A stretch of DNA of 63,835 bases, filler included, from Folioceros fuciformis (Eukaryota): assembly GCA_049999805.1 (NCBI GenBank). It is 13 parts of 13 records of this genome, joined end to end, with 100 filler letters (N's around TTAATTAATTAA, not from the genome) between each part and the next. Parts side by side here need not be neighbours in the genome. Positions count along the whole stretch, not along the records: positions 41,158 to 52,673 come from JBNGIO010004744.1; 12 more parts are not named here. The stretch is one strand, 5' to 3'. The notes under the pieces were generated by a model. It searched no databases. It was not told where the DNA came from and was given only the letters and a program-made list of their open reading frames with translations. Shown piece after piece: positions 6,037 through 60,013 of the stretch. Each line of letters opens with the position of its first letter. Position 1 is the first letter of the stretch. A program made the translations under genes and the position numbers.

Positions 6037-7729
6037 CCTCAAAAGCAAAATCTTGGGCAGAGGATTCAAGCAAACTTTCTGGCTTCTTGAGAGGAAAGGC
6101 GTCGGAATTGTTGTGCTTTTGCACTATAGTCTTTTCCAAATCTGACATCCCTGTGCCGTATTGCACTCCAGCTATTGAGCACTTCAGAAACTTCATTTTA
6201 TTTTGTGTAAGTGTTCCAGTCTTATCAGCTAATATGATTTTCACCTGCAAGTCCATGTAGTGTCTAATACAAGAGATGTGATACTGGAATGCAGCTCNNN
6301 NNNNNNNNNNNNNNNNNNNNNNNNNNNNNNNNNNNNNNNNNNNNNNNNNNNNNNNNNNNNNNNNNNNNNNNNNNNNNNNNNNNNNNNNNNNNNNNNNATC
6401 ATGTTCTTCACAATATAAATGTAAGTCACAAGAAATAATGTATGCTTGTGCATACTTGGTGGCCTCAAGTGACATAGGAAGTACAAGAGAGCAAGCATGA
6501 CCTAATATAGTGTAGGGAGATCAAACTCTCAAAGTCCAGAAATGCATTATGGTATGTGATTTAAATCAATAATAACTATGTTCTCACATTATGATTGAAA
6601 ACAAATGGGATGCTAAATTACCATAAGCAAGCAAACAATACACATACCGCCAAAGCCAAGCTAGCCAAATTGTTGATGACGGACCAAATTCTTGATAAAA
6701 TGGTTTGTCATGGATAGTGATTGCTTCAATTTGCAAGTACCACGGTTTTCCATGACCAGATGAGGTCCAACCACGTCCAAACCCAATTGAAATTATTGAT
6801 ATTATATGTAGAAACACTATGCTGTACAAATACAAATCGTCCACAGTACGATCTACAGAACTACGTTTTGATATTTGAGAGCTGGTAGAACTGTTTAGAG
6901 CCATTTTAGTGTCAACACCAACAAATATGATTGCTGCATATACAAACTCTGTGTTCACAAGCTTCATCCCCCGTAGCAGTAACTGTGCATGGGATACAGT
7001 AATTTGCTTTCCTTGAAACCGGAAAACCCCAGTAAAGTCTGTGAAGAAGGGATTGGGTTGCCCACATTGTAGAGTTGCATTGAACTTGTAGAAATGTTCA
7101 GGGTTGCTCTGTGTTGCGTTTAATATGCCATGTTTAACAACGGTAGCAGAACCACCGTCTAAATCTTTGGTATCAACATAACAAAAGTTTTCTGCATAGC
7201 TTGTGGACAATAATAAAAGATCTGCTGGAATACCCATGTTTGCTTCAAGTTTGACAAGGTCCCCTATTTTTAAATCTCTCCAACAACATTGATCAAAGTC
7301 TCCATTTTTCTGGCATACTAGTACTGTCTGAGAATGTAATAACTCACTGGCTTTTCTGCGTCTGTAGTCTTCAATTGCCTCTCTCAACATCCCTGTTAAG
7401 AAGAAGGCGAAACAAAATCCAAATGTGGTGTGCATGGATTTTGTTAATTGGATTACATTGATCAGTGTCAAGAGCGCAAAAAGTGTGCTCACTATATTAG
7501 GAACTCGTCTCAGTTGCTCATACAAGGTTTTTGGGATGAAAGTGATGTAAGTATATTTGTACAATTGCAACTCATTAGAAGCTCTTGGATTTCCATGAAG
7601 AGTGCGAGCAGAACCTATGTATATTGTTCGCAAACTAGAACCCAGATATATGGATTCCAAACCAGTTCTGAATGTAGATATCACCCTTGATATCAATGTC
7701 TTATTGCTGGGTGTTTCAACCTCATCCAT
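6037..7729 (-). CDS. Divergent P4-type ATPase (ALA-like phospholipid flippase), 5' part; possibly a pseudogene
   Basis: [62 protein letters not shown] and, downstream, [21 protein letters not shown] (P-type phosphorylation motif). Interrupted by introns, an N gap and the contig end. Confidence 0.85.
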
Positions 7730-10352: not shown

Positions 10353-12896
10353 TCATGCAATCGCTGACTCCGTCTTGCTGGCTCCCGGGAGCCTCTTACC
10401 GACCAAGAAAGTGTGCACCATTCCGTCCATGTCCGTCCACCATGTCTGGCCAGCCTGCTTCCATGCCCCACTTTCTCTTCTGCTTGCCTGCATCTCCAGT
10501 GCTTGCTCCCACATCTGGGCACTCGTGTATATGTTTGACATCAACACATACGCTGCAGAATCTTTCCCATCCAGCTTCACTGCTTCATCAAACGCATAGC
10601 GTCCCACCTCTACGTTGCCCCACTTTTGACAAGCCGCCAAGAGAGTGTGCCAGATTGCAGCGTTCGGCTGTAAAGGCATTGTTCTTGCTACGGCTAGTGC
10701 CTCGTCTAGTTCTCCTGCACGACCAAAGAGATCCACCATGCATGTATAGTGGTCCACCGTGGGAGTGACACCGTAGTGTTTGCTCATTTTGTCGAAGTAC
10801 TCTCGCCCCTTGCCCACTAGCCCTGTGTGACTACAGACTGTTAGTACACAAAGACACGTGACGCTGTTGGGCTGCATGCCGTCGTTTGCCATTCTGAGGA
10901 TCAAGTCAAAGACTTTTTCACTGTCTCCTTGACGGGTGTATCCTGATATGAGTGCACTCCAGGTGCAAGCATCTCTTTCGCACAACTCATCGAACACCTT
11001 CTGTGCATCCACCATGCTCCCTGCCTTTGCGTACATGTTTATCAAACTGTTGCCCACAGTGACATCGACATGAAGGCCTTGATCTTCAATCTGTGCATGA
11101 AGCTGCCTTCCAACGTGCAATGCTCCCACACTAGCACATGCTTGAAGGAGGCACACAAATGTCACGGAGTTCGGTGTAATAATGACTTCTTGTTGCATAG
11201 CCTTGTAAAGACGAAGGGCTTCCTGCGCAATGCCCTTTTGGGAATATCCTGCTATCATGGCATTCCATGTCACAACATCTTTACGAGGGAGCCCATCGAA
11301 TACAGTCTGAGCATCCTCGAGGCACCCGCACTTGGCATACATATGTACCAAACTGTTGGCTACAAACACATCTGCTTGAAGTCCTTGGTCTCTAACTTGT
11401 GCGTGAAGCTGCTTCCCCTTCTCCAATGCTAGTGAACCTACACTTGCGCATGCCTGCAGGAGGCTAACGTATGTTACAGAATCCAATGCAATGATTCCTT
11501 CGTCTTGCATAGCTTTGGAGAGACGAAGGGCTTCCTGCCCCATGGAATGTTTCGAATATCCCGCTATCATGGCACTCCATGTTACCAGATTCTTTTGTCC
11601 AAGTCCATCAAACACGGCCCTTGCATCCTCTAGGCTGCCACACTTTGCATACATGTTCACCAAACTGCTGGCTACAAATGCATCTGCTTGAAGTCTTTGG
11701 CCTCGAATCTGCACATGAAGCTGCCTCCCTTTCTCCAAGGCCGCAGTGCCCACACTTGCACATGCCTGCAGCAGGCACACGAATGTCACAGAATCAAGTG
11801 CAGTGACACCGTCTTCTTGCATAGCCCTGTACAGACCAAGGGCTTCTTGTCCCATGCCTTGCTTGGAATATCCTGCTATCATAGTGCTCCAAGTCACCAA
11901 ATCCTTTCGAGGAAGCCCGTCAAAGACTCTCTGCGCGTCTTCCAAGCTGCCACACTTTGCATACATGTCTACCAGGCAGCTGCAAACAAACATATCAGGC
12001 TCAACGACAGTAGTAAACACATCGGCATGTATCTGCTGCCCGGATTTCAAGTCTGCTCCCCTGGCACAAGCCTGAAGAGCTGGTACAAACACATGTCCAT
12101 CTGGCTTCACAGCTGACCGGCGCATCTTATGATACAACTCTATAGCCTGCTTGTCTTGCCCCATTTTAACGTGGGCGGAAATGATGGCAGACCACGTGAA
12201 GGCATCTGGTTTGTCAACGGCAACGAACACGTCCATCGCTTCTTGAAGTCTGGCATGAGAAACATACATTCGCAGAATGTGATTGCAAATGAACGTATCC
12301 GACTCATAACCCTTCTCCACGATGAGGGCATGAACGCGGCGACCCAGAAGCAGATCCTTCTTCGCCACGCATTTCTTTAAGACCGTATAAAGCAGAGACC
12401 TGGAAATGTGCCAGTCTGCTTGCACCATAACTCCCAGAGCTTCCACCGCCTTACGGAGGTGCCCCTGTTCACATAGTTCGCTCACGGCTTCAGCCGACAT
12501 TTCCATTCCCTGGTATGCATGCCTGCCAGGACTACAGTCACGTGCCAAGCTGTAATTGAATGTAAGATCCACCTGCATATCCACAGCAACCAGCGCCCGA
12601 GTTGATCTGAGGGAGTTGCTCTGCCAGCGGAGCTCCTGGCGCTGCCCATGCCAGAAGCTAGGCGCACGAGAGCTCCTCCTCGAACAAGCTGACATTCTGG
12701 TACAAGTCCTGTACCTCCCTGCTTCGCCATTTGCCAACAATTGGTCCCTTGGAGTCAGGTGACTGCGTGCCCTTCCTAGACTACGTGCCAGCCCACTTGG
12801 TTCTGGGTTCCACGAACGCTGTGCCCACAAAGGAACCTGTTTCCCTTTGCATGACTCAAGTCCAATGCTCCAAATAACCATGGCTCCAAGGGGCAA
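10353..12896 (-). CDS. PLS-class PPR protein with E domains and truncated WW-type E+ end (no DYW deaminase)
   Basis: Intronless 847-aa ORF (first ATG at 12881). P-L-S triplets (LVDMYAKCGSLEDAQRVFD / LVTWSTMIAGY), E domain (IWHTLLAAC, AAYVLMSNIY), ending KQAGQTWWTDMDGMVHTFLVG. Confidence 0.93.
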   Translation of the reverse strand: MPLGAMVIWSIGLESCKGKQVPLWAQRSWNPEPSGLARSLGRARSHLTPRDQLLANGEAGRYRTCTRMSACSRRSSRAPSFWHGQRQELRWQSNSLRSTRALVAVDMQVDLTFNYSLARDCSPGRHAYQGMEMSAEAVSELCEQGHLRKAVEALGVMVQADWHISRSLLYTVLKKCVAKKDLLLGRRVHALIVEKGYESDTFICNHILRMYVSHARLQEAMDVFVAVDKPDAFTWSAIISAHVKMGQDKQAIELYHKMRRSAVKPDGHVFVPALQACARGADLKSGQQIHADVFTTVVEPDMFVCSCLVDMYAKCGSLEDAQRVFDGLPRKDLVTWSTMIAGYSKQGMGQEALGLYRAMQEDGVTALDSVTFVCLLQACASVGTAALEKGRQLHVQIRGQRLQADAFVASSLVNMYAKCGSLEDARAVFDGLGQKNLVTWSAMIAGYSKHSMGQEALRLSKAMQDEGIIALDSVTYVSLLQACASVGSLALEKGKQLHAQVRDQGLQADVFVANSLVHMYAKCGCLEDAQTVFDGLPRKDVVTWNAMIAGYSQKGIAQEALRLYKAMQQEVIITPNSVTFVCLLQACASVGALHVGRQLHAQIEDQGLHVDVTVGNSLINMYAKAGSMVDAQKVFDELCERDACTWSALISGYTRQGDSEKVFDLILRMANDGMQPNSVTCLCVLTVCSHTGLVGKGREYFDKMSKHYGVTPTVDHYTCMVDLFGRAGELDEALAVARTMPLQPNAAIWHTLLAACQKWGNVEVGRYAFDEAVKLDGKDSAAYVLMSNIYTSAQMWEQALEMQASRRESGAWKQAGQTWWTDMDGMVHTFLVGKRLPGASKTESAIA

Positions 12897-14352: not shown

Positions 14353-17352
14353 TCAGATGTGGCACATTCTTTTGTCATGTTGCTCAATCCTTAAAGGCGT
14401 GGAATCCCCAACAAGATAACTGTGCACCACTCCATTCATGTCTGTCCACCAACTCTGCCCTGGCTGTTTCCCTGCCCTGATTTTCATTCTCCTTGCCTGC
14501 ATATCCTGTGCCTGTTGCCACATTTCGGCATTAGTATATACTTGGGACATCAACAAATACGCCGCAGCGTCGTTCTTGTCTAGCTTCACTGCTTCATCGA
14601 AAGCATGTCGCCCCACGTCTGCGTTGCTCCACTTTCGACATGCAGCCAGTAGAGTGTGCCAAATTGCAGCATCAGGCAGGACAGGCATTGACCTTATGAA
14701 GGACAGGGCCTCATCCAGGTGTCCTGCACGACCCAGGAGATCCACCATGCATCTGTAGTGGTCCGCTGTGGGAGTGATCCCATCAAGTCTGCTCATAGCC
14801 TCCAAGTACTCTCGTCCTTTGTCAACCAAACCCGTATGACTGCATACTGTTAGTATACTGAGGAACGTGAAACTGTCTGGCTGTATGCCGTTGTTTTTCA
14901 TTGTGCGCACCAAATTGAAGACCTGGTCACTGTCCCCTAGGCAAGTGTACCCTGCAATAAGTGCACTCCAGGTGACCACATTTTTTTGAGGCAAAGCATC
15001 GAACACCTGCTGAGCATCAACCATACTCCCAAGCTTTGAATACATGTTTATCAAACTGTTGCCTACAATGCAATCAGACAAAAGCCCTTGTTCTTTGATC
15101 AACGCATGCAGCTCCCTTCCCACATGCAATGCTGCAACCGTTGCACATGCGTGGAGAAGGGGCACAAATGTTGCAGAATCGGGTCCGACAATCCCTTCCT
15201 CTTGCATAGCCCTGTAAAGGCCAAGAGCTTCCTGACCCATTCCTTTTTGAGAATATCCAGCTATCATGGCATTCCACGTCACCACAACTTTCTGAGGAAA
15301 TCCGTTAAACACGCCCTGAGCATCCTCTACGCTGCCACACTTTACATACATGCTCACTAAAGTGTTCGCTACAAACACATCTGCTTGGAGCTCCTGTTCT
15401 CTGAGATGTGCATGAAGCTGCTTGCCCTCTTCCAAAGCCGGGCTGCCAAGCCTTGCACAGGCCTGCAGAAGGCAAATAAACGCCTCCGCGTCGAGTGCAA
15501 CAATGCCTTCTTCTCGCATTGCAGAGTAGAGACGAAGGGCTTCCTGCATCCTGCCCTCCTGGAAATATCCTGCTATCATAGCACTCCATGTTACTACATT
15601 CTTTTGCCCAAAGATTGTCAAACACACCCCGAGCATCCTCTAGGCTGCCACAAATTTGTCAGTCTGAAGTCCTTGTTGTCGAATCTGTTCATGAAGCTGC
15701 CTCCCCTTCTCTAAAGCTGGGGTGCCAAGACTTGCGCATGCCTGTGAGACAGACACGAAAGTTATGGAATTGGGTGCAACAATGCCTTCATCTTGCATGG
15801 CTCTGTACAGTAGAAGGGCTTCGTGCCCCATGTCCTGCTGAGAATATCCAGCTATCAAGGCACTCCATGTCACCACATCTTTCTGAATAAGTTGGTCGAA
15901 GACACTTCGAGCATCCTCCAGGCTACCACACTTGGCGTACATGTGAACCAAACAGTTGGCCACAATAACATCAGATTCAAGGCCTTGTTCTCTGATTCGT
16001 GCATGAAGCTGCTTTCCCTTCTCCAAGGCTGATGTGCCTAAACTTGCACATGCCTGCAGAAGACTCAGAAACGTCACAGAATCCAGTGCAACAATGTCCT
16101 CTTCTTGCATAGCCCTATACAGACCAAGGGCTTCCTTCCCCATGCCCTGCTGGGAGTAACCTGCTATCATAGCATTCCGTGTCACCACATTCTTTTCATC
16201 AAGTCCGTCGAACACTTGTTGAGCATCGTCTAAGCTGCCGCACTTTGCATACATGTCCACTAGAGAGGTGCAGGCAAACAAGTCAGGCTCAACGCCACTG
16301 GCCAGCACATCATGATGGACCTGTTGCCCAGATGCCAAGTCTGCCCCCTTTGCGCACGCTTGAAGGGCTGCTACACACACATGGCCATCTGGCTTAACAC
16401 CTGACCTGCGCATCTGATGATACAATTGCATGGCCTGCACATCTTGTCCGTGCTTAACATGCGCAGAAATTATAGAAGACCACATGAATGCATCTGCTCT
16501 GGCAGCCATAGTAAACACACCCATAGCTTCTTCTAACTTTGCATGAGAAGCGTACACGCGCAGTATGTGGTTGCACAAGAACGTGTCCGACTCATATCCC
16601 GTCTTCACGCTCAGAGCATGAACACGGCGACCCAGAGGCAGATTCTTGTTAGCCATGCATCTTTTCAGCACCACGTAAAACACAGAATTAGGAATGTGAG
16701 AGTCTGCGAGGACCAGAACTCCAAGAGCCTCCACGGCTTCATCGAGCTGCTCGTGCTGACACAGTTTTCTCACAATTTCAGCCGTGACGCATGTTTCATG
16801 TCCTACGGACCCGCGGTGCTCACGCACATGCAGCAGGAAGGTACGACGCATTTCCATATTGAGAGCAGCCAGCTGCCCATCCACCGAAGCTACCTTGCAG
16901 CATTTGTTTAAGCAGAGGACCTCTTGGGACTCCCTACTGACGAAGTCAGGTGAAGAGGAGCGAGTCTTGCGTTTCCTCTTATTCCACAAAAGTAGAGGAG
17001 CCAACAGGAATTGCCCGCCCAAGTGCTCCTCAGGGCAATCCTTGCTGGAAGCTCGGTCTCCAACCAGACCTCCTCTTGAAAGGGCTGTCTTTCTTGCCAA
17101 GGTGCCACACCTTGTGTTGTTCGCCACCGGCAGGATCTTTGGAGTCGAACGAGGGCAAGCTCCACCAAACCCGATACCGTGGTCCGTCCAGTAGATCCTC
17201 TTGCCACCGGACTGGACCAACGCAAACGGCCAGTCTAGCAGAGCCAAGCTATGAAAGTGCGCATGTCCAGGATACCAAGCACTTGCACCACAACATCTGT
17301 TGTCAATTCTCACGTCACATTCGCACAACGTGATCGAATCGAGGCCCTTCAC
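14353..17352 (-). pseudogene. PLS-class PPR-E (WW-type) gene interrupted by an internal deletion and in-frame TAG at 15640-15642
   Basis: ORFs 15640-17352 and 14353-15636 are in the same frame and together give one PLS array ending KQPGQSWWTDMNGVVHSYLVGD. One S motif is partly deleted. True start codon uncertain. Confidence 0.85.
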
Positions 17353-41057: not shown

Positions 41058-42358
41058 NNNNNNNNNNNNNNNNNNNNNNNNNNNNNNNNNNNNNNNNNNN
41101 NTTAATTAATTAANNNNNNNNNNNNNNNNNNNNNNNNNNNNNNNNNNNNNNNNNNNNGCTCAGCCACCAAGGGTGAACAGTTGCAGGGGAAGACTTAGCG
41201 GGCGGCCATCTAGCAAGGAAGAGGCGGCGTCCGCAGATCTTTGATGATCAGACATCCTCCGAAGTCTAAGGATAGTCTAAGAGGTGGTAGATCCTTGTGG
41301 TGGTAGGGCCAGCTCATTGGTGGCAGGATGTGCTAGAAGTATAAATAAGTGGCTGGTGACAGCCGATTAGGCTAGTGGTCCTATTAAAATAATATTTGTC
41401 AAGTTAGAGAGAGNNNNNNNNNNNNNNNNNNNNNNNNNNNNNNNNNNNNNNNNNNNNNNNNNNNNNNNNNNNNNNNNNNNNNNNNNNNNNNNNNNNNNNN
41501 NNNNNNNNNNNNNTGTTGCCGGCTGTGCAACGTCTGGTAGGATCGCAAGCCGCGTGTTGCTGGTTGTACAGTGTCTAGTAGGATCACAAGGTGTAATGAC
41601 CAGGGTGAAGGGGCTTGCCCCTAGCTCTTGATTGTAAAGGATGTGTCTTTCTCTCGACCTGTCCACTCTTGTTCCCTGTTTGGACAAGTGTTGTAGGCCG
41701 GCCATGTTTCATGGCGTCTGGTAAGGTTGTTGGGAGGAGATATCCGAGAGGGGAGTGTGTTCCCTTCTTTCTTTTCTTTGGGGTTAGTCTAGTGACTCTT
41801 GCTGGGTAGGAGGAGTCAATAGGGAAGTGTAGAAGGTAGTGGTGTCGTTATTAGTTGCTGGTGTTGATGCTAGAGTGAGAGAGCGAGTGAAGTGAGTGAG
41901 GGAAGTCGCAGATCTGAAAGGTCAGGGTCGTTGTAGTGACTGGAGTGAGTTTGTGGGCACCGAGAGAGGTGCAGCTGACCGCTGGACAGCGAGGCCTGTC
42001 CTACGCCTGATCGGAGCTGGAGGGGAGCCCTTGAATCCATCATCGAGTCAATTGAGTCCGACCCTCCATCCATAGCAGCAAGGAACCCCATCGCTCCTTC
42101 GTGGGAACGAAACCCAATGTCTCAACGACAGTGGGATAAGTGTGGCCACTAAAGGTGGAACCCGTCGACAATTAGGAAGTATTGCTTGCAAAATATCACG
42201 TAAGATTGGGATGAAGTGGTGCCATTTATGTTGCTTAGCTATTGGGTAAGCACTCAAGNNNNNNNNNNNNNNNNNNNNNNNNNNNNNNNNNNNNNNNNNN
42301 NNNNNNNNNNNNNNNNNNNNNNNNNNNNNNNNNNNNNNNNNNNNNNNNNNNNNNNNNN

Positions 42359-42895
42359 ATGTGCAGCAAGCTGCTATGGAAAGACCAATATCATGGCGAG
42401 ATGTGGATGGTTGCATGAGAGAGCTGCAAGGACGGGCAATGTTGTTTCAGAATATAATGCCAATGGCAATGGAAAATTTGGCCATTGCACAACATAGGGA
42501 TAGACTACGCTATGCTCATACAAAAGCAATCACCCGGAAGGTGGGATCCTACTGTGCCACGATAAAGTCGAAGCTCTTGGTCCTCCTCTTGGTCGACAAC
42601 TCCCCTTCCAATCCACCCGCAATCGTGCTCTCCAAAGTCGAAGCTCTTGGTCCTCCTCTTGGTCGACAACTCCCCTTCCAATCCACCCGCAATCGTGCTC
42701 TCCANNNNNNNNNNNNNNNNNNNNNNNNNNNNNNNNNNNNNNNNNNNNNNNNNNNNNNNNNNNNNNNNNNNNNNNNNNNNNNNNNNNNNNNNNNNNNNNN
42801 NNNNATAGTCAGTTGAACATAGTGATAAAGACTGCGCTATGCGAGGACATTGGAAGCCCAAAGTGCGTCGATTCAAACTTGGCGATTAGGTAGTA
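42359..42895 (+). mobile_element. Gypsy integrase C-terminal remnants with an inserted, duplicated dispersed repeat
   Basis: MPMAMENLAIAQHRDRLRYAHTK and WKPKVRRFKLGD. A related copy lies on the minus strand at ~50590-50800. Confidence 0.6.
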
Positions 42896-43469
42896 AGGGC
42901 CAATTGCTTTAGTGTTATTTCCAAGCACACACAATTCATAAGTCAACGAAGGTGGTCCGATTGTTTGGAATAGCCCATTGCAGCACCTATGGGTATACTG
43001 CACGCACCGCAATTGCAGAACAAAATACTTGAACAATACGATAACCAGTGCCTCACTGCGCGTGGCTGTGATACACAACATAAAGCCCCAGTTGGCTATA
43101 TACCACATTGACTAGAAGCAGACAAGCTTATGAGCACATAAGGCTGGAAACAACGGCTGGTTCTGAATCCTTACACAAATCGGGTAGGATTTCCAGGTTA
43201 TGGGGATGGGTGCTTCTCACGGATGTGAGGAGGCAATCAGCACGATTGTCTGAAGTCTTCTGCTGCCCAAGGTGTGGAATGGTTCACACTCTGCCCCAAA
43301 GACCCATCTTCCTCTCAGTGAGTACCGTGCCTGCTTTTTTCTTTGAAGGTTGGTGACCCTGACTGCCCTTCTGTGGCAACCCTAGTAGGCGTGTTGCGTT
43401 CTAGTTCCCCTTCGCCTGGACATCTTTAAGAGGACGTGCAACTCATCATGAATAAACATCCTCATCGAA

Positions 43470-43532
43470 CAGGATAACAGTCGATGCGCACGGTACCCAT
43501 GCCTTCCAACAATGTCCCTCTGTTCAAGCCTT
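43470..43532 (-). pseudogene. Relic of DYW:KP C-terminus
   Basis: RLEQRDIVGRHGYRAHRL vs RLEQRDIVVRDGYRVHRF of the adjacent gene. Confidence 0.7.
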
Positions 43533-43968
43533 CTACCCCCAGCCAGACACCCTTGAACCACCCTCAAAATGCACTGGTATTGCTGGGACCGGTATCAATC
43601 CTTAAGTCCCCGAGCCTTGCAGCTTGGCAGCTCTGCTTCGAAAGCCACAAAACCAGAAGCCAAATGATCTTGCAAATCCGCTCTCACACGCTACATGCTT
43701 GAATCCCGCAAGCACAGCCCCGATTCCACAGGATCTGATCCGACCACCCAGGCCCGCACTGGGGCCCTGACCCCCGATCTCCAAGACCCAGCCCAATCCC
43801 AAGCGAGTCCCCAAGAGGTGCAAAGCCGTAAGTGCCCCCCGCACGGATCTATTCAGATTGAGGTCCAGGCTCAGTGTGAACCATCCATTTCCATGCCTCG
43901 GTTGGCAAAGGAATGAACATGTCCACGTCTCAGCAAGTAATGAGCACTGGCGACACTTCTTCATTTTC

Positions 43969-46458
43969 TCACGGTCGACCCTTACAACTGCAACGACCAC
44001 CTGTGAATCGATGTACACGATACCCATCCCTTACAACAATGTCTCTCTGTTCAAGCCTTGACATAATCTCCGTGGAACTGTGGCAGTCACTGCACATCCG
44101 AAGATTCTTCGTTACCATCAGAGGTGTCCCACTCGAAGTGTTCAATAGACCAAACGCTAAGGCTAGCTTCTCAGCATGCCCACAAAGCACATCTTCCTTT
44201 TCCTTCTCACACACTGGCTTCAACACCAACTTTGTGTGAGGTGCGTGGCCTCCTTCCTGCTTCACACGTGCATTTGTTCTTTCCACCTGAAGCACAATAT
44301 CCTTTCTCATGTCTCCCACCAGAAACCTGTGTACCTGCTTATTCACCTCAATGGTCGCCACTGCAGGTTTCTTGTTAGCTCCTGCTACCCTTCTCAGTGT
44401 CTCAATCCTTTCTACATCCCTCCACCTACCCGCATCAGCACAGGCATTGGCCATGAGAACATACGCAGGCGCATCCTGAGGGTCCAACCTTACAATGCTT
44501 TTGAAACACCACATCGCCCTTGCCAAATCCCCGTGAATTTTGCACGCATGCAACAATGACCTCAAGCCCACAACACTGTTTTGGCCCTCACACGACGACA
44601 GCATCTTCTCTGCCTCATCTAAGTGACCAGCACGTCCAAGAAGATCAATCATGCAGTTGTAATGCTCAATACTAGGTTCAATGCCATGCTGTTCAGACAT
44701 AGAATAGAAGTGTTTGCAACCCTCGTGGACCAGTCCTTCATGACTGCAGGCTCCTAGAAGGGAAGTAAAAGTAGCATCATCAGGCTGAACACCGGCAACT
44801 AACATCTCCTCAAAACAAGCTAGTGCCTTGAGACCTTCATCACACGCACCGTACCCAGATATCAGGGCAGTCCATGTCACCACATTCTTTGTGGGCATGC
44901 TGTCAAAAACCTGGCGTGAATCTTCCAGATCACCAAATTTTGCATACATGTCCACAAGGCAGGTGCCCACCACAACGTCATCCAGCAGTCCTCTTTCAAC
45001 AATCTGTGAGTGCAGCTGCCTGCCCTGTTGTAAGGCGCCCGTGTTTGCGCAGGCCTTCAAAAGGCAACCAAATGTGACACCATCCGCCAGAATGAGGCCC
45101 CCCTGCTCCATTTGTTCATAGAGAAGAAGCGCGTCATGTCCGAGCCCTTTCTGCACATACCCAGCTATCAAGGCATTCCAGGTCACCACATTCTTTGTGT
45201 TCATGCTGTCAAAAACCTGGCGTGCGTCTTCCAGTTCACCATATTTTGCATACCCAGCGATCAGGGCATTCCATGTCACCAAATTCTTTGTGTTCATGCT
45301 GTCAAAAACCTGGCGTGCATCTTTCAGTTTACCACATTTTGTATACCCAGCTATCAGGGCATTCCACGTCACCACGTCCTTTGTGGCCATGTTGTCAAAA
45401 ACCTGGCGTGCGTCTTTCAATTGTCCACATTTTGCATACATGTCCACCAAGCAGTTGCCAACAAACAAGTTGCTAGCATTCCCACTCTGCACCACATGAC
45501 GGTGCACTTTTCTGCCAGAGTCCAAGTCGGCGGCAAGTGCGCAAGCCTGAAGGGCAGCTACGAAGACATGACCATTCATCTTCATTCCTGACCTACACAT
45601 CTCATGATAAAGTTGTATGGCCTCCTTCGGTTTTCCGTGCTTTGTATGTGCAGAGATTATGGAAAACCACATGAAGGCGTTTGGTCTGCCCACCCTGGAG
45701 AACACATCCATGGCTTCCTGCAGCCTACCTTCACTTGCATACATGCGTAAGATATGGTTCCCTAAGAACGCACTCGACTCGTACCCAAGTTTGACAGTGA
45801 GATCATGAACTCGACGCCCCACAACCAAATTCCTCTTAGCTGTACATAGTTTCACCACCGTGTACAACAGAGACTCGGGAATCACCGAGTCTGTTTGCGC
45901 CAGATATTGAAGGGCTCCAACGGCCCCAGAAAGCTCCCCCTGTTGACACAACGTGCTCACGGTACCAGCAGTAACGACACCCATCCCCGATGTTGAACAC
46001 CTCCAAGATTCAGGCTTGTTCGGAGAGATGGATTCAGAAGAGGAAGCAGCATGCTCCATCTGCATATCCAGGGACATGAGCTGCTCATCAACCCAAGCTG
46101 GCTTAAGCATGTTGTTTAACCACAGGACCTCGCCGGACGCCTTGCGCCTGAAGTCGGGGCAACGAGAGCTCTTCTTATCTCGCCTGTTGTCCCACCACAT
46201 CATAGGGTCCAGAAAGAACTGTTGCCACAAGTGCTCCTGTCCCTGGCGACGAGCATCGTCGGAAATCACGTCCCCACCCACACATCTTCTCACAGGTGGA
46301 CGTGCTTGGCTCCTTACGCTGCCGCACCTGGAGGCTATGTCGATGGCCGGGGATGCAATCCGTGGTGTGGTAAGCTGAGCCGAAGTCCCTCCCAAGAGCC
46401 CTGAACACGCTCCGATTTGTTGGGTACACAACGGGTCCGCTTGCCTTAGCGCCGCCAT
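43969..46458 (-). CDS. PLS-class PPR-E-DYW:KP protein (GRP C-terminus) with N-terminal OSB-type PDF motif; candidate organellar U-to-C editing factor
   Basis: Intact intronless ORF (open to 46521; first ATG at 46458). PLS/SS repeats, KKPAVATIEV box, HAEKLA, CSDC and terminal CSCKGRP. N-terminal LWQQFFLDPMMWWDNRRDKKSSRCPDFRRKASGEVLWL. Confidence 0.94.
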   Translation of the reverse strand: MAALRQADPLCTQQIGACSGLLGGTSAQLTTPRIASPAIDIASRCGSVRSQARPPVRRCVGGDVISDDARRQGQEHLWQQFFLDPMMWWDNRRDKKSSRCPDFRRKASGEVLWLNNMLKPAWVDEQLMSLDMQMEHAASSSESISPNKPESWRCSTSGMGVVTAGTVSTLCQQGELSGAVGALQYLAQTDSVIPESLLYTVVKLCTAKRNLVVGRRVHDLTVKLGYESSAFLGNHILRMYASEGRLQEAMDVFSRVGRPNAFMWFSIISAHTKHGKPKEAIQLYHEMCRSGMKMNGHVFVAALQACALAADLDSGRKVHRHVVQSGNASNLFVGNCLVDMYAKCGQLKDARQVFDNMATKDVVTWNALIAGYTKCGKLKDARQVFDSMNTKNLVTWNALIAGYAKYGELEDARQVFDSMNTKNVVTWNALIAGYVQKGLGHDALLLYEQMEQGGLILADGVTFGCLLKACANTGALQQGRQLHSQIVERGLLDDVVVGTCLVDMYAKFGDLEDSRQVFDSMPTKNVVTWTALISGYGACDEGLKALACFEEMLVAGVQPDDATFTSLLGACSHEGLVHEGCKHFYSMSEQHGIEPSIEHYNCMIDLLGRAGHLDEAEKMLSSCEGQNSVVGLRSLLHACKIHGDLARAMWCFKSIVRLDPQDAPAYVLMANACADAGRWRDVERIETLRRVAGANKKPAVATIEVNKQVHRFLVGDMRKDIVLQVERTNARVKQEGGHAPHTKLVLKPVCEKEKEDVLCGHAEKLALAFGLLNTSSGTPLMVTKNLRMCSDCHSSTEIMSRLEQRDIVVRDGYRVHRFTGGRCSCKGRP

Positions 46459-46836
46459 GGTTCGCGGGCCGTCGTCGGAAGATGACTTTAACAAAAGACT
46501 GCGGCAGGATCCCCCAGGCACCGAGCATCGCTATACCACCCTGGAGAACTAACCAGACTGTTCTGCATTGCTTGCAGAGGAAGAGAACACACGGTATGGC
46601 TTGGAAGGATGCAAAGTCAAGATTCTTTCCACGGTGCAGTCAGTCTTCATCTTCCTCCTTCCAGGAAGAAACGACCCATTCCACTCTAACTGTGTCCCTC
46701 GTTCCAGAAGCAAAGACAAGACGGAAGGCGGAGAGCGTTAGCCATTCATGGCCATCCAGAGCACCCTACAGGAGCACACATTGTCCTCCAGCGTAAATGA
46801 ACATTTGGAACACTGGCTACTTCTACGTTATTTTTC

Positions 46837-49136
46837 TCACGGTCGACCTTTACAACTGCAACAATCAGCTGCGAATCGATGCAAACAATAGCCATCCCTT
46901 ACAACGTCTCTGTGTTCGACCCTGGACATGATCTCCGTGGAACTGTGACAGTCACTGCACATGCCTAGGTTCTTGGTTACAACCAGGGGTGTCCCACTCG
47001 GAGTGTTCAACAGACCAAACGCCAGGGCTAGTTTCTCAGCATCCTTGTACAGCACATCTTCTTTCTCCTTCTCAGACAGTGGCTTCAACACCAACTTTGT
47101 GTGAGGCACGTGGCCCCCTTCCTGCTTTAGACGTGCATTCGTGCTCTAGACCTTGAACGCAATATCATCTCTTTTTTCTCCCACCGCAAATGAATGTACC
47201 TGCAAGTTCACCTCAATGGTCGCCACTGCAGGTTTCTTGTTAGCTCCTACTGCCATACTCTGTGTTTCAATCCTACCCACATCGCTCCACCTGCCAGCGT
47301 CTGCAAAGGCGTTGGCCATGAGCACATACGCAGACGCCCTTTGAGGGTCCAGCCTAACGAGGCTCTCGAAACACCACATTGCCCTCTCTACATCCCCATG
47401 ACTTTTGCATGCATACAGCAATGACATCTAGCCCACGACATCAAGTTGGCTCTCGCATGATAAAAGCATCTTCTCGGCCCCATCTAGATGGCCTGCACGC
47501 CCAAGAAGATCGATCATGAAATTGTGATGCTCAACGATAGGTTTGATGCCATGCAAGCAAAGAACTTGCGACCCTGGTCCACCAGTCCCTCATGACTGCA
47601 TGCTCTTAGAATGAAAGAAAATATAGCACTATGGGGCTGAACACTGGCACCTAACATCTCATCAAGGCAAGCTAGTGCCTTACGAGCTTCACCACAAGAG
47701 CCATACCCAGATATCAGGGTGGTCCAGGTCACCACATTCTTCGTGTTCGTGCTATCGAAAGCCTGGCGTGCATCTCCTAATCCACCACACTTTGCACACA
47801 TGTCCACCAGGCTGGTGCCCACGACTACGTTATCCAGCAGTCCTCTTTTAACAATCTGCGAGTGCAGCTGCCTACCCTTTTGTAAGGCACCCGTGCTCGC
47901 ACAGGCTTTGAGAAGGCAAGCAAACATGAAACGGTCAGCCAATATGAGGCACTCTTCCTCCATTTGTCCATAGAGCAGAAGCGCTTCTCCGCCGAGTCCT
48001 TGCTGTATGTACCCTTCAATCAGGATGGTCCATGCCACTACATCCCTTTGTGACCAAGTTGTCAAAGGCCTGCCGTGTATCTTCCAGTTCGCCACATTTT
48101 GCATACATGTCAACCAGGCAGTTTCCAAAAAGAAGTCGGGAGGAATGCCACTCTGTAACATATTACAGTACACTTTCCTGCCAGACTCCAAGTCGGCGGC
48201 AAAAGCACAAGCTTGAAGGGCAGCTGCAAATACATGAGGATCCGCCTTCACACCTGACCTGCACATCTCGTGGTACAGTTGTACTGCCTCGCTCGGTTTG
48301 CCCTGTTTAGCATGGGCAGAGATGATGGAAGACCAAGTGAAAACATCTGGTTGGCCTACCCTCGTGAACACATCCATGCCCTCCTCTAGCCTGCCTCCAC
48401 ATGCGTACATACGCAAGATACGATTCCCCACGTATGCAATCGACTCGTAACCAAGTTTGACAGTAAGATCATGAACTCGCCCAACAACCAAAGTGTTCTG
48501 AGCTGTCCATAGTTTGAGCACAGTGCAAAGCAAAGAGTTTGAGCGTGTCCGGGCCAGAGATTCCAGGGCTCCAACGACATGAGAAAGCCTCCCCCCCTGA
48601 CAAAAAATGCTCACGGTTTCAGGCGTTACGACGCCCATTTCCGATCCTGCACGACTCCCACATTCAGACTTATCTGGTGAGCTGGACTTGGAAGAAGAAG
48701 CACCGTGAGACATGTGCATATCCAAGGAAACGAGCTTCTCATCAACCCAAGCTGGCTTAAACAAACTGTTTAACCACAGAACCTCGCCAGACCCTTTGCG
48801 CCGGAAGTCAGGAGAACGGGAGCCCTGCTTATCTCGTCTGTTGTCCCACCACGTGGTAGGCTCCACAAAGAATTGCCGTCACAAGTGCTCCTGCTCCTGC
48901 TCCTGCTCCTGCTGCTCGAAACGACCGACTTCCTTCGGATATCCGTCCCCAGCCAGCCATTTTCTCGGAAATGGAATCCTTACACTGCTGCTCCTCGAGG
49001 CTTCATTGTTTACAACGTGTTGACTCCCTATGATGAGGTGAGCGGGACCCGGAGTTCCTACAAGCATCCCTGTCGTGTATGCACACAAAACAATTTGTTG
49101 GGTCCACAACGGGTCCGATTGCCATACTGTGGCCAT
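46837..49136 (-). pseudogene. Tandem paralog of PDF-PPR-DYW:KP gene, pseudogenised
   Basis: Same architecture, ending CSCKGRP. Stops at ~48879, 47428 and 47146; frameshifts near 48130, 48055 and 47550; HAE changed to DAE. Confidence 0.9.
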
Positions 49137-49498
49137 CGTTCGGGTAATGCTATCGGAAGATGAATTCGTCATAATCCCCGGGCACACACCACCCTGAAGG
49201 AGTCGGCACACTGTTTTGCAAGGCTTTGCTCTTTGCAAAAAAACGGAAAAAAACAGGAAAATGTAATGGTTTGTGTGAGCGGTCACCCTGAAAAGTGTCT
49301 TGGATGTTGGGCCCAGCACTCTCTAGGATAGAGCCCAACTTAATGTACTAGGACAAAACATGCGTATACTTTATGTAGGAAGGCCAAGAAGCAACCAAGC
49401 ACTGAATCATGGACGAGGAATGATGGACGAGTAAGGAGCGTGTACGGAGATGCTGCCGTAGTATAAATGGTTGGCTAAGCAAGGGGGATAGCGAGAGG

Positions 49499-49677
49499 AC
49501 TCTTTGTCCGGGCATTGGGGTCTTGAGTAGGGGCATAGTGTTGTAGTACAAATGGTTAGCATAGGAAGGGGCATAGTGGGACGACTCTTTGTCTAGGCAC
49601 TAGGTCTTGAGTAGGGGCAATATTGTAGAGACTTTTTGTCTAGACACTAGGTCTTGAGTAGAGGCAATATTGTGGAG
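49499..49677. repeat. ~47-bp imperfect repeat x3
   Basis: ACTCTTTGTC...GGTCTTGAGTAG(G/A)GGCA core at ~49499, 49583 and 49631. Confidence 0.75.
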
Positions 49678-51107
49678 CACAACATTAGAATCCTTCTTAT
49701 GAACTTATAGAGCTGGTATGATAAAGAGGTTATAAGCTCACCACACCTCTTCTCCATGTAGATGAGGAGGTAATTTTGGAGGAAGCCATATTGCGTGACG
49801 TCCTAGTGAGGGACACGTACTACTGCGTTGCTTATCAAACTATCATAAGATGTAAGGGCCTCTGAGGCTTAATGGCTAAATGGGGATACAATGGAAATAC
49901 AAAAGGGGACGATCATTGCAAATCCTCGTGAAATAGACATTCATGACAGAGCGTTCTAGTTGGCAAAGGTTATGTGGCCAAAACTTGAGGTCACAAATTC
50001 GTTTATCGTTTATGCAGTCTGGTGTGTTGTGCTGTGCCGCTGAACATCACACTCATGCATTGTTCATTAGTTAACAATATCACACCACGCCACATTACAC
50101 ACACATTAAACACTGCATGATGGTGCTGCAACTCTATCCCCCCTACTGGTTAGTACTCTGCCAGCACATATATGCTACAGCACTACTACGACATACTAAG
50201 AATTCAAACATACATATTACTCTTGAACACATCAATCATGCATCAACTTGTATCACTTGTTAATGAAGATTAGATTGCAGGCTCATGGCTTTGGCAACTT
50301 TGTATAATCTGGGCAAAACCAATCTTCTTCAAGTACTTCTTCCAAGACTGAATGTAGACAAAACAAGTGATACCCTTGATTGCAACAGTCACACAAGAGC
50401 ATGGCATCTTCTTCATTAGAGTGACCACAAATGCAACATTCCAAGTCCTTGGGTGGTATCCAAGTGCTAGGTTATAGCTCTGGATTCAGATCTGACAATG
50501 ACAAGAAGCTAGGTTCTTCAAATGATCTTGCCACCTTCGTCCATCAGATCCCTCCAACTTCACCACCCCAGTGTCCTTAACAATGACCACTCGCAGTATC
50601 GTGCGCGTAGCACAACTATCAAGTGTATCTGAAGGTTGCTGAGCCAAGTATATGTAATCACCAAGTTTGAATCAACGCACTTTGGGCTTCCAACTTCCTC
50701 CTTTTGTTTGTATATAGCGCAATTTGTCCCTATGTTGTGCAATAGCCAAATTTTCCAACTGGCTGTGCAGAAACATGAATCTTCGGGCAATAGCAGCCCT
50801 TTGCGAAGAGCTGGGTGGAGAGCACGATTGCGGGTGGATTAAAAGGAGAGACGTTGCCCAAGAGAAGGACCAAGAGCTTCGCCTTGGGCGTGGCACAGCA
50901 GGATCCCACCTTCTGATTGGGGAATTCCTACAGAGGTAGAAGGACTCGACGAAGCCGATGCTGGACCACGATCTGGACTTGAAGGGCTAACACTGCTCCC
51001 GGGGCAAGCTAGAACGGTGGCTCCGGGGCGGACGCTGTCAGCATTGTCGGAGCCTGAGAATGAGCCTTTCCAGAGCGTGAAGGGGGCAGGAGTTCGGCGG
51101 CAAGAAG

Positions 51108-51250
51108 ATGAATCACAACAACGTCGTGCTGAATATTCACTTTAAGAAGGACTAGCAAAACTACGTGAGGACGTGGTTCAACCAGCCGGCGCATAAGAAG
51201 AGAAGACGTCTTGCAAGGCATAGGAAGGCTGTGAGGATCTTCCTGCGGCC
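51108..51250 (+). pseudogene. RPL13: 60S ribosomal protein eL13 N-terminal fragment
   Basis: [47 protein letters not shown] matches plant eL13 ([30 protein letters not shown]...KAVKIFPRP), with W changed to a stop. Confidence 0.88.
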
Positions 51251-52009
51251 GAAGTATTAGAACATATTAAGTAAATAACTACTTGGCAGTTATCTACCTT
51301 AGGTAGGTAGTCTCACATTTCTAGTATAGCGGTTAATAATTGAATGCCTTTGAGCTTTAATACACTCTTAGTCATAATACAATATACTATTCTCATACAT
51401 CCTTATGCTTTTCTTGTGCACACTTCCTGGCCTTCCCTGTTTAATCACCACCTAAGTGAAGATGCTCATGGTGGTGTACCCTTGCCTGCTTTTATGGTTG
51501 TAGAGCAAGATTTAAGCAACCAAGCCGGGCGCTCGTGCACCCAGGTTCCATGATTCAATCTGCTTACCAACAAAATGCCGCATCATAGATCTCAACCCTC
51601 TCCACCATGACCTGCTTGCAGATTTGCGCACCCTGCAGTAGTGTGCCAGCAACTCTGCGACGATTGCAGACTGGAACAGAGGCTAGAGTCTACATTATCA
51701 CCAAGGAGTTGATAGCAATTTGCATGTCAGTGTCCGAGCATTCCTACGCGATGTGTATTGACAGATCATGAACCACCTTCAAGGAAAAAAGAAAGTGCAC
51801 TCCGATAGATTGCAGATTTGCGAGCACGCACAAGAAGGCAAGACGAGCTCATTAATCAGCTAACCAACAGCACCAAGGATCTCCTTATGATCTGCAAGAG
51901 GCATTCTGTTATTGAAGCAATGCGCTCCACAATCAGCAGTTGTCGTCCCTCGGTGCCTTGCACCCTTCTAAAATTTCTCTCTTTTTGTTTATGTCACAAG
52001 GTTCAAGAT

Positions 52010-52673
52010 TAGATGATGATTTCGACATCTCTTTTCTCTTTTGCTAATGCTGCTACTTACTCTTATTGGGATTATTCCCCACCCAACCTTTTGAAGCTAG
52101 CAAGACAAGCAAATCTTCAGTTTGTCCTTAATAATCTCCTACCACAACCTGCAGTCATGATAGGAGGCAATCCACTAGTTATTCCTGTAGTACCTACACC
52201 CTTAAAGATAGAGTTCAAAGATAAGGACAAGTTTGAAGGATCGCTAGAGGAGCTGCATGGTGAAGGAGGAGAGGAGGAAGTAAGGAGGAGGAGAAGGAGA
52301 GGTCACACTCTCACGATGTCTCACATTGCAAGGGAGCTCAAGGGGGTATTTATACCCTTTAGAAAAGCTCCCTAGGAAGCTTCACTAAAAGTGCACAGGA
52401 AGCTACGCAAGAAGCTTCCTACAGATTAGCTTAAGCTAATCTAAATTAATGGTACTTACTAAATACTAATCTTAGACTAAACATATTAGTCTAAGCACAT
52501 TGGGCTTTACTAACCCTACAACCTCCCACTTAAAGGCCAATTTACCTTCATAGGAGAGTGGTCTACCTCATGCCCATGAGTGTCCGAGCTTGTGCGAATT
52601 GCTCTATAGAGAGCCCCTTAGTAAGATGTGAACCTCCAAAGTTTGGGGTAGTAGTTTGTTTTGGTTGAAAAAG
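52010..52673 (-). mobile_element. Copia 3' end: RNase H terminus, PPT and 3' LTR
   Basis: Minus-strand LTKGLSIEQFAQARTLMGMR*, then AAGTGGGAGGT (PPT) and TGTAGGG starting at 52520. LTR distal end approximate. Confidence 0.7.
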
Positions 52674-58680: not shown

Positions 58681-59817
58681 TCAGCTGCCTTGGGGCAAGG
58701 GCGTGGTCAAGTAAGGGTCGTCCTTGTACTCAGAGAAAGGGGTTAACTCCAGGGCTTCCTCTGCGATGCGGGCGTCCTCATGGATGCGAGCCACCAGGGC
58801 TTCCAAGGACGGGAAGTCGGATTCCGCGCGGATGTAGCCCACCACCACCAGCCGCAGCTCCTGCCCGTAGAAGTCCTCGGGGAACTGGTGCAGCAGCCAC
58901 GGCTCCACCGTCTTCTCCGAGTTGTCGAAGAAGGGGTTCCAGCCCACGCTCACTACCATCTTGTGCACCCCGGACCCCGCCAGGCCGGCCCAGCCGAGGT
59001 AGATGCCGCAAACATGTGTGGCCAGTGTGCCGGAGAAGGCCGAGGTGGCCAGATTGGCAGTCGGGATGCCCAGCATCTTGGACCCCCGCCCGAACCCCCT
59101 CACCACGGGACCACCTACATACCACGGCTCCACCGGCAGCGCGCAGGACACACGGTCCTGGAACGCCGGCAACCCCCACCGCTCCAGCTCCAAATCCAGC
59201 AGCGATCCCAGCACCTCGTCCGCGCCTGCGTACAGCTGCCTGGCACACTTCCCCCGCATAGACGGTACAGCCACCACCGCCATTCCCGCGGCCTTCCCTG
59301 CAGCCACGCCCGCCGGGGCATCCTCGATCACCAAGCACCTGCCCGATTCACACCCCACCTTCCGCGCCGTCTCCAGGAAGATGTCCGGCCAGGGTTTACC
59401 CAGCTCCACCTCGTCCCCGGCCACGGTGGTGGCCATAGCCTCCGCCCATCCCTCCTGGCTGCCCACCTTCAGGTCCAGGTATCTGCGGGGCGAGCTGGAC
59501 GCCACAGCCATCGTCACCCCGTGCCTCGCCAGATGACGAATGAGCCTGGTCGCCCCGGGAAGAGGCCGCACCGACGGCCATCTCTCCAGCAGCATCTCCC
59601 CGGTGCGCGCGAACACATACTCGGCTGTGCACGGCAGCTCGTAGTCGGCGATCAGCGCTGCCGCTGCCTCCAGCGGCCGCTTGCCCAGCCGCTTCTCCGC
59701 TCCCCTGCCATCCCACACTTTGCCGTACTCCTCCCGCACCAGGATCTCCGACACCTCCTCCACCACCCTTTCTGTGTCCAACAACGTGCCGTCCAGGTCC
59801 AGTATCACCGCCAACAT
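58681..59817 (-). CDS. FHY: Bifunctional FMN hydrolase (HAD) / riboflavin kinase, intronless
   Basis: VILDLDGTLLDTE, GKPWPDIFL and CLVIEDAPAG (HAD); GPVVRGFGRGSKMLGIPTANL, SVGWNPFFDN and EPWLLH (riboflavin kinase). Confidence 0.95.
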   Translation of the reverse strand: MLAVILDLDGTLLDTERVVEEVSEILVREEYGKVWDGRGAEKRLGKRPLEAAAALIADYELPCTAEYVFARTGEMLLERWPSVRPLPGATRLIRHLARHGVTMAVASSSPRRYLDLKVGSQEGWAEAMATTVAGDEVELGKPWPDIFLETARKVGCESGRCLVIEDAPAGVAAGKAAGMAVVAVPSMRGKCARQLYAGADEVLGSLLDLELERWGLPAFQDRVSCALPVEPWYVGGPVVRGFGRGSKMLGIPTANLATSAFSGTLATHVCGIYLGWAGLAGSGVHKMVVSVGWNPFFDNSEKTVEPWLLHQFPEDFYGQELRLVVVGYIRAESDFPSLEALVARIHEDARIAEEALELTPFSEYKDDPYLTTPLPQGS

Positions 59818-60013
59818 CGATCCGGCGTCCGTACCGGCCGCGGAAAAAAAAAAAAAAAATGCCGCACCGTTTTGCCTCCTCTCGCTTCCTTACTTATCTA
59901 CCCGCTCCCAATTCGGCTTCCACTTCCACACGTAGCTCATCAACTCAAAGTTTGCAGTCTAATCCGAACAATAATGAACCCATTACCAATGTGGCTTGGT
60001 TTATGTGCCTAGC

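Follow-up and report, generated by a model that had tools for sequence, protein, structure and literature searches.

An OSB-type PDF motif N-terminal of the repeat array in a candidate PPR-DYW:KP editing factor from Folioceros fuciformis

Introduction

Plant RNA-editing factors are usually described as a presequence followed by an array of pentatricopeptide repeats (PPRs) and by E/DYW domains, and the synthetic C-to-U and U-to-C editors follow that plan. The present work deals with a gene of Folioceros fuciformis (assembly GCA_049999805.1) in which a further domain stands between presequence and repeats, namely a PDF motif of the kind known from the OSB proteins, which bind single-stranded DNA in organelles. 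The gene is situated in a stretch of 63,835 nucleotides, filler included, made of 13 parts of 13 records of this genome joined end to end, and the part that carries it (positions 41,158 to 52,673) comes from JBNGIO010004744.1. We will refer to the whole stretch as the window. An earlier account of this DNA, made from the sequence alone, had proposed the fusion (the sequence-only reading).

The published systems closest to this gene are summarized here after the passages at hand of the sources cited. The PDF motif is defined as a module of ~50 amino acids (aa) with a conserved Pro-Asp-Phe signature; in AtOSB1 it suffices for binding of single-stranded DNA (ssDNA), an ability which the OB-like fold of the protein seems to have lost (PMC6963530), and AtOSB2 binds ssDNA, the dissociation constant for a single-stranded overhang of 10 nt being 8 nM (PMC6451138). 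The DYW:KP domains, in turn, comprise 132-133 aa, with Lys88 as the sole lysine conserved in all of them and essential for U-to-C activity, and those of hornworts form two subgroups, DRH and GRP, named by their last residues (PMC9478123, PMC11845758).

The PDF motif and its gene

By profile comparison, the segment 46078-46233 of the window, read on the minus strand, encodes a true PDF motif, homologous to the PDF motifs of OSB proteins. It corresponds to aa 76-127 of an ATG-started open reading frame (ORF) of 829 codons (43969-46458), and its minus-strand translation is HLWQQFFLDPMMWWDNRRDKKSSRCPDFRRKASGEVLWLNNMLKPAWVDEQL (reading HLWQQFF...PDFRRK...VLWL...PAWVDEQL); the plus strand of the same segment gives an unrelated translation that includes a stop. 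The sequence-only reading had located the motif correctly at these positions, and its aa ~97-148 of an 850-aa ORF denote the same residues, counted from the stop that lies upstream (TAG at 46531-46533, with a stop-to-stop frame of 853 codons). With 52 aa and P-D-F at aa 101-103 of the ORF, the segment has the length and the signature of the published motif. In hhalign it was compared with an OSB-type profile, built from 40 PDF motifs of PPR-free proteins (named OSB1 and OSB3 proteins among them), and matched it with a probability of 99.65% and an E-value of 5.2e-25 over 59 columns, which bears out the motif proposed at the outset; a profile of 20 PPR-linked motifs matched the same OSB-type profile at E 1e-35. 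All invariant columns of a merged 60-sequence alignment are kept in the window piece (R22, D32 and F33, in the numbering of a 66-aa piece), together with all the nearly invariant ones (W8, W18, D20, K25, P31, L42, W43, P50 and W52), and the conserved residues coincide between the OSB motifs and the PPR-linked motifs.

Database searches point to the same family. A 72-aa piece searched by phmmer against 1.84 billion representatives matched 615 proteins at E<=1e-3, of which 182 reach E<=1e-10 and 16 reach E<=1e-30. Many of the 615 show 2-13 matched stretches each, as a repeated module would. A Populus nigra "protein OSB1, mitochondrial-like" (E 4.6e-25), a Euphorbia peplus "organellar single-stranded DNA binding protein 3" and the OSB3 proteins of Amborella and Chenopodium are found among these matches, and a profile search with the PPR-linked motifs returned many named OSB2/3/4 proteins among the matches listed (the best 120 of 367, as against the best 150 of 615 for phmmer). 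Several matched proteins have a weak or precomputed SSB domain (PF00436; weak in P0032, P0036 and P0001). Pfam, which is without a model for the PDF motif, found no family at E<=10 in aa 1-200; a word-index search with aa 60-140 gave three candidates, none of them significant, and the ESM Atlas gave no usable match for aa 66-137.

The motif belongs to a complete, intronless coding sequence on the minus strand (43969-46458; a single ORF of 829 codons plus stop), in which ORF, Pfam and profile results agree on the single-ORF order that had been suggested: presequence, PDF, PLS-type PPR array, E motif and DYW:KP domain. The first 75 aa (46234-46458) form a probable organelle-targeting presequence, a predicted role drawn from their low identity to relatives and from the composition of the first 60 aa (7 R+K, 2 D+E and 19 S+T+A). 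The PDF motif is followed by a Ser-rich, poorly conserved linker (aa 128-195; 45874-46077), without a Pfam family, which continues into the opening helices of the PPR array. The array itself (aa 196-641; 44536-45873) is recognized by Pfam PPR, PPR_1, PPR_2 and PPR_3, with PF01535 at E 1.7e-72 over 10 stretches in the whole protein, and the E motif (aa 642-704; 44347-44535; PF20431, E 9.7e-12) comes after these tandem repeats, as in PLS-class editing factors. The C-terminal deaminase-like domain (aa 697-829; 43972-44370; PF14432, E 1.4e-32) has 133 aa and presents a K1-P2 start in place of the PG box, H65xE67, K88, M92, the zinc site C93xxC96H97 and the end G131-R132-P133. Since the length, the KP start, H65xE67, the CxxCH zinc site, K88 and the GRP end match the published traits of DYW:KP domains, the gene can be assigned to the hornwort-type GRP members of the PPR-DYW:KP group; the sequence-only reading had likewise called it DYW:KP. 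Judged by these features, it is an intact intronless nuclear gene whose product, with one OSB-type PDF domain, is a candidate hornwort GRP-type factor for RNA editing in organelles.

Within the array, three tandem, nearly identical PPR units of 31 aa occupy aa 364-456 (45091-45369, minus strand), TWNALIAGY...DARQVFDSMNTKN, the word TWNALIAGY standing at aa 364, 395 and 426. These units seem to stem from a recent duplication of an S-type motif within the array, by which the RNA footprint would gain repeated positions.

Distribution and origin of PDF+PPR proteins

The combination of PDF and PPR is not restricted to this locus. Ninety-six of the 393 proteins collected combine both, with the PDF N-terminal of the PPR match in 94 of the 96, and with one PDF copy in 44, two in 44, three in seven and four in one. 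Their sources are Diphasiastrum, with dozens of loci, as well as Selaginella, Adiantum, Sphagnum and records whose ends (GRP or DRH) are of the hornwort type. The fusion noticed in the window is real and not unique to this gene, being found across mosses, lycophytes, ferns and hornwort-type records. The tie to DYW:KP or to U-to-C editing implied by the sequence-only reading does not hold: 66 of the 96 proteins end without a DYW signature, 25 end in DYW, two in DSW, two in GRP and one in DRH. From their domain composition, the PDF+PPR fusion is a general feature of PLS-class PPR proteins in seed-free plants, and the proteins collected show that such fusions make up a large and old family in seed-free land plants.

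The individual searches contributed to this set as follows. Ten of the 150 listed phmmer matches carry PPRs (Pfam confirms nine), none with a DYW domain like that of the window protein, and the named ones belong to Diphasiastrum complanatum, Selaginella moellendorffii and Adiantum capillus-veneris. A search for PPR relatives with the whole protein newly listed 119, and 29 of these bear one to three PDF motifs, including a Sphagnum jensenii "DYW domain-containing protein". Three PDF-bearing Logan proteins possess a DYW:KP domain, two of them ending in GRP (P0172 and P0276) and one in DRH (P0224). The profile of PPR-linked motifs, searched among longer proteins, gave the 367 matches at E<=1e-5, and 53 of 90 newly listed ones carry PPRs; as read from the listing, all 53 are from D. 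complanatum, with dozens of locus tags and a few same-locus isoforms, in a list biased by a query alignment rich in Diphasiastrum rows. All the named PDF+PPR proteins among the matches listed belong to mosses, lycophytes or ferns, and no seed-plant example was found among them.

PDF motifs also occur in other contexts, with 9-13 copies in "hypothetical" or unnamed proteins and a combination of SSB and PDF in an Ulva protein (P0002, P0001 and P0337 are among the proteins concerned), as well as three PDFs N-terminal of the motor in a Coptis chinensis kinesin model (P0047), possibly a merged gene model. The Selaginella PDF+PPR protein XP_024517303 exists, though Selaginella is listed without OSB in the passages at hand of PMC4166229.

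An artefact of assembly or gene calling, joining an OSB fragment to a PPR gene, has some points in its favor: the window contains 1656 N, short-read contigs fragment at PPR repeats, and at least one PDF match, the Coptis kinesin model, resembles a merged gene. Against this, the frame from PDF to PPR array is continuous, with no N and no stop, the tandem paralogue described below has the same domain order, this order recurs in the 96 proteins, whose assemblies are independent and represent five or more plant lineages, and DNA contigs of run X1 match 45801-46101 and 46210-46863 with no differences. We regard such an artefact as extremely improbable.

A quick tree of 163 PDF motifs over 57 columns (5 of 160 inner branches starred) groups the PPR-linked motifs strongly, with four label changes versus 53.5 for shuffled labels; a single origin of the fusion and several origins are both compatible with it. 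The window motif falls in a group with P0276, P0172, P0224, P0005 and three fern proteins (support 87, unstarred).

Public-database entries of PDF+PPR proteins are labeled "hypothetical" or as generic PPR proteins. Full-text literature searches found no description of the fusion, in line with the sequence-only reading, which knew of none, and a brief earlier mention is possible. A 2026 survey of the OSB family (PMC13393729) contains no occurrence of PPR or pentatricopeptide, and a 2026 kingdom-wide survey of domain fusions in editing factors (PMC13386178) contains none of OSB or PDF. The novelty is in the combination, as the PDF motif and the PPR-DYW:KP proteins are each already well known.

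The distribution of the fusion is also of interest for a different explanation, in which the PDF is a protein-protein module that oligomerizes the factor or docks it onto OSB, nucleoid or editosome proteins, as a cis counterpart of MORF. AtOSB2 and AtOSB3 elute as tetramers (PMC6451138), MORF genes are limited to seed plants (PMC13386178), the named PDF+PPR proteins listed are all from seed-free lineages, and one to four PDF copies would suit an avidity or scaffold role. Nevertheless, the tetramer-forming part of OSB proteins may be another than the PDF, the apparent absence from seed plants is drawn from the 150 of 615 and 120 of 367 matches listed, and the sole activity ascribed to the motif in the passages at hand is the binding of ssDNA (PMC6963530, PMC4166229, PMC6451138). 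We consider this explanation rather unlikely.

Constraint and decay of the motif

The PDF is far better preserved than the sequence around it. Compared with its nearest PDF-bearing relatives, the window protein has a PDF identity of 60% to P0172, 58% to P0276 and 46% to P0224, and the corresponding identities are 20-31% in the presequence, 15-31% in the linker, 52-60% in the PPR array and 66-71% in the DYW domain, so that conservation of the PDF is two to three times that of its flanks. The ratio of non-synonymous to synonymous substitution rates (dN/dS) is 0.23 over 51 codons of the PDF versus the tandem copy, a noisy figure. These values indicate that the PDF is under purifying selection where the gene is intact.

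The copies in the neighborhood provide the counterpart. A tandem paralogue lies directly upstream (46840-49136, minus strand), with 77-80% nucleotide identity and the same order PDF-PPR-E-DYW:KP(GRP). It is a pseudogene: within its PDF, the conserved W of L-W is changed from TGG to TGA (48879-48881), and elsewhere it shows a frame change near 47550, two further in-frame stops, a replaced His of HxE and some PPR repeats that have slipped out of frame. When the window was scanned in six frames with a PDF hidden Markov model (HMM), a third, decayed motif was found at 16861-17013 (minus strand; E 5.1e-6), which keeps P-D-F, has lost several nearly invariant residues, several conserved Trp among them, and has no in-frame ATG upstream; it precedes the ORFs 15640-16857 and 14353-15636, which are a PG-type PPR gene split by an in-frame stop and ending soon past the PG box. 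As the PDF decays in these two broken paralogues, the motif would not survive without selection. The third motif suggests that the PDF was ancestral to the local PPR cluster and is being lost.

These data bear directly on the possibility that the PDF is a passenger, acquired when an ancestral PPR gene gained an OSB fragment, copied since by retroposition, and either functionless or removed together with the presequence. In hornworts and lycophytes it is mostly retroposition that has driven the expansion of PPR genes (PMC13386178), the PDF tree permits few origins, and the motif is lost or decayed in several relatives. What speaks against a passenger is that the invariant and nearly invariant OSB residues are kept across mosses, lycophytes, ferns and hornwort-type sequences, that the PDF exceeds its flanks in conservation and has the low dN/dS given above, that the motif visibly decays in the broken copies of the window, and that PDFs are found up to aa 340 in Diphasiastrum. 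A passenger is accordingly quite improbable in our estimation.

Two further observations concern copies of the motif. An intact PPR-E gene of 842 aa (10353-12881, minus strand) has no PDF by HMM; a remnant upstream of it, seen by eye as a P-S-F / L-R-W pattern, was dropped, the HMM reporting nothing there. In addition, the bin 46061-46257, which contains the PDF segment, shows in runs X1, X3, X5 and X17 a summed contig depth 30-80 times that of the adjoining bins, and A>G at 46202 appears in 10-26 contigs per run, the runs being labeled as three organisms. This hints that in three organisms the PDF-coding segment exists in several copies and is conserved better than the sequence on either side; the depth was not used as evidence.

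Predicted structure and proposed function

AlphaFold2, run with a 60-row alignment, gave a confident, compact model of the PDF (predicted local distance difference test, pLDDT, 91.7; predicted template modeling score, pTM, 0.76). In the 66-aa piece the model has helices at 4-13 and 52-65 and strands at 18-20 and 33-35, i.e., the domain folds in silico as a compact helix-strand-strand-helix unit. A two-copy complex prediction of the piece, run without the family alignment, scored 0.00, which speaks neither for nor against self-association.

When a PPR array binds RNA, its N-terminal repeats are oriented to the 5' side, and the DYW domain is placed at the base that is edited. The PDF is N-terminal and the N-terminus of the array faces the 5' side of the RNA, so the PDF would lie 5' of the PPR footprint. 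We propose, with a probability of roughly 0.6, that the PDF of this PPR protein has an accessory role, binding single-stranded nucleic acid independently of sequence on the 5' side of the PPR footprint, or serving as a nucleoid anchor. OSB and PPR-linked PDFs conserve the same residues and so probably make similar contacts. The domain would stay on the mature protein; in the PDF+PPR proteins of Diphasiastrum the PDFs extend to aa 250-340, too deep for removal with a presequence. Its contact would be either with nucleic acid upstream of the footprint that the repeats recognize, at a distance of tens of nucleotides from the edited base, or with nucleoid DNA. On RNA, it could raise affinity and keep the upstream RNA single-stranded; on the ssDNA of a transcribing nucleoid, it could hold the factor so that editing closely trails transcription. 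Specificity would remain with the PPR code, and the chemistry with the DYW:KP domain. It is unlikely that the PDF lets the deaminase reach ssDNA, an option raised by the sequence-only reading, because it is situated at the end of the protein opposite to the DYW domain.

Several points weigh against the proposed binding role. AtOSB1 and AtOSB2 are reported to prefer ssDNA over double-stranded DNA or RNA (PMC4166229), and RNA binding by the PDF is therefore not the default expectation. The designer proteins KP2 and KP3, without a PDF, reach U-to-C editing of ~22-26% in E. coli (PMC9478123). Among KP-type relatives, P0251 has a decayed PDF and P0187, with a full N-terminus, has none, and by such cases the motif appears dispensable in some lineages. 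The OSB-type PDF profile, searched against the sequences of the PDB, gave no match at E<=10, Foldseek with the model gave a best E of 4.5 and a wide VIA-align search of structure representatives a best Z of 3.6 (57 residues; root-mean-square deviation 3.7), both uninformative; with no solved counterpart for the fold, the structure gives no functional clue and no support for a mode of nucleic-acid binding. The predicted function of the PDF in PPR proteins is inferred from homology, architecture and conservation. The read data of all runs are contigs, and in X3, a run guessed to be RNA, the intergenic 43500-43993 and 46410-46863 are covered at similar depth, so it is uninformative on transcription.

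A conserved extra domain would supply a missing piece in how editing factors find or hold their substrates, and the PDF, borrowed from organelle ssDNA-binding proteins, is present on dozens of lycophyte proteins of the predicted editing-factor type and on hornwort-type KP proteins. It could bear on the modest efficiency (~22-26%) of GRP-type designer editors (PMC9478123). The known range of the PDF motif is extended beyond OSB proteins, and the motif may connect RNA editing with the metabolism of nucleoid DNA. A wider version, which we put forward tentatively and would not bet on, is that the PDF is a general built-in accessory module of editing factors of seed-free plants, lineages without MORF, coupling C-to-U and U-to-C PPR editors to single strands of nucleic acid where the nucleoid is being transcribed. 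If this were true, the "ssDNA-binding" PDF would really be a single-strand-binding module common to organelle genome maintenance and RNA editing, and its loss from PPR proteins would coincide with the rise of MORF in seed plants. The hypothesis is directly testable through one 52-aa module.

Other features of the window

Outside the PPR genes, the plus strand of 1-3959 carries a degraded Ty1/copia-type retrotransposon polyprotein, split over several ORFs (GAG-pre-integrase, integrase core and RVT_2). On the minus strand, an ORF at 6584-7729 has the N-terminal domain of a phospholipid-translocating P4-ATPase and is probably one exon of a larger gene, and a 378-aa ORF at 58681-59817 combines HAD hydrolase and riboflavin kinase domains (of the FMN, flavin mononucleotide, hydrolase/riboflavin kinase type). 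The latter is overlapped on the opposite strand by a 410-aa ORF (58780-60012, plus strand) without a Pfam family, which is probably not a gene.

Comparison with known systems

With OSB proteins, the window protein shares the homologous ~50-aa motif, with W, D, R, K, P-D-F, L-W and P-x-W at the same conserved places, a family-wide variability in the number of PDF copies, and a probable organelle destination. OSB proteins, in contrast, have an SSB/OB-like domain N-terminal of their PDFs, and Pfam finds no SSB (PF00436) in the window protein, either in aa 1-200 at E<=10 or in the whole protein at E<=1; moreover, its PDF precedes an RNA-binding repeat array and a deaminase-like domain. Therefore, it is not an OSB protein.

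The hornwort GRP-type PPR-DYW:KP proteins, which are candidate U-to-C editing factors and the templates of KP2 and KP3, share with it the PLS repeats, the E motif and the 133-aa DYW:KP domain, including the K-P start, HxE, K88, M92, CxxCH and the GRP end. The difference is found at the N-terminus: their published description, in the passages at hand, starts at the first P1 motif and names no N-terminal domain, and the designer KP2 and KP3 carry, unlike the window protein, thioredoxin and a His tag at that end (PMC9478123).

Finally, MORF/RIP, the ORRM-type RRM-PPR fusions (such fusions are on record; PMC13386178) and OZ proteins resemble the proposed arrangement in that a sequence-independent helper is joined to a sequence-specific PPR protein, although by a different fold and family. 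MORF is a trans-acting helper confined to seed plants, whereas the PDF module is in cis and is seen in seed-free plants (PMC13386178 for MORF).

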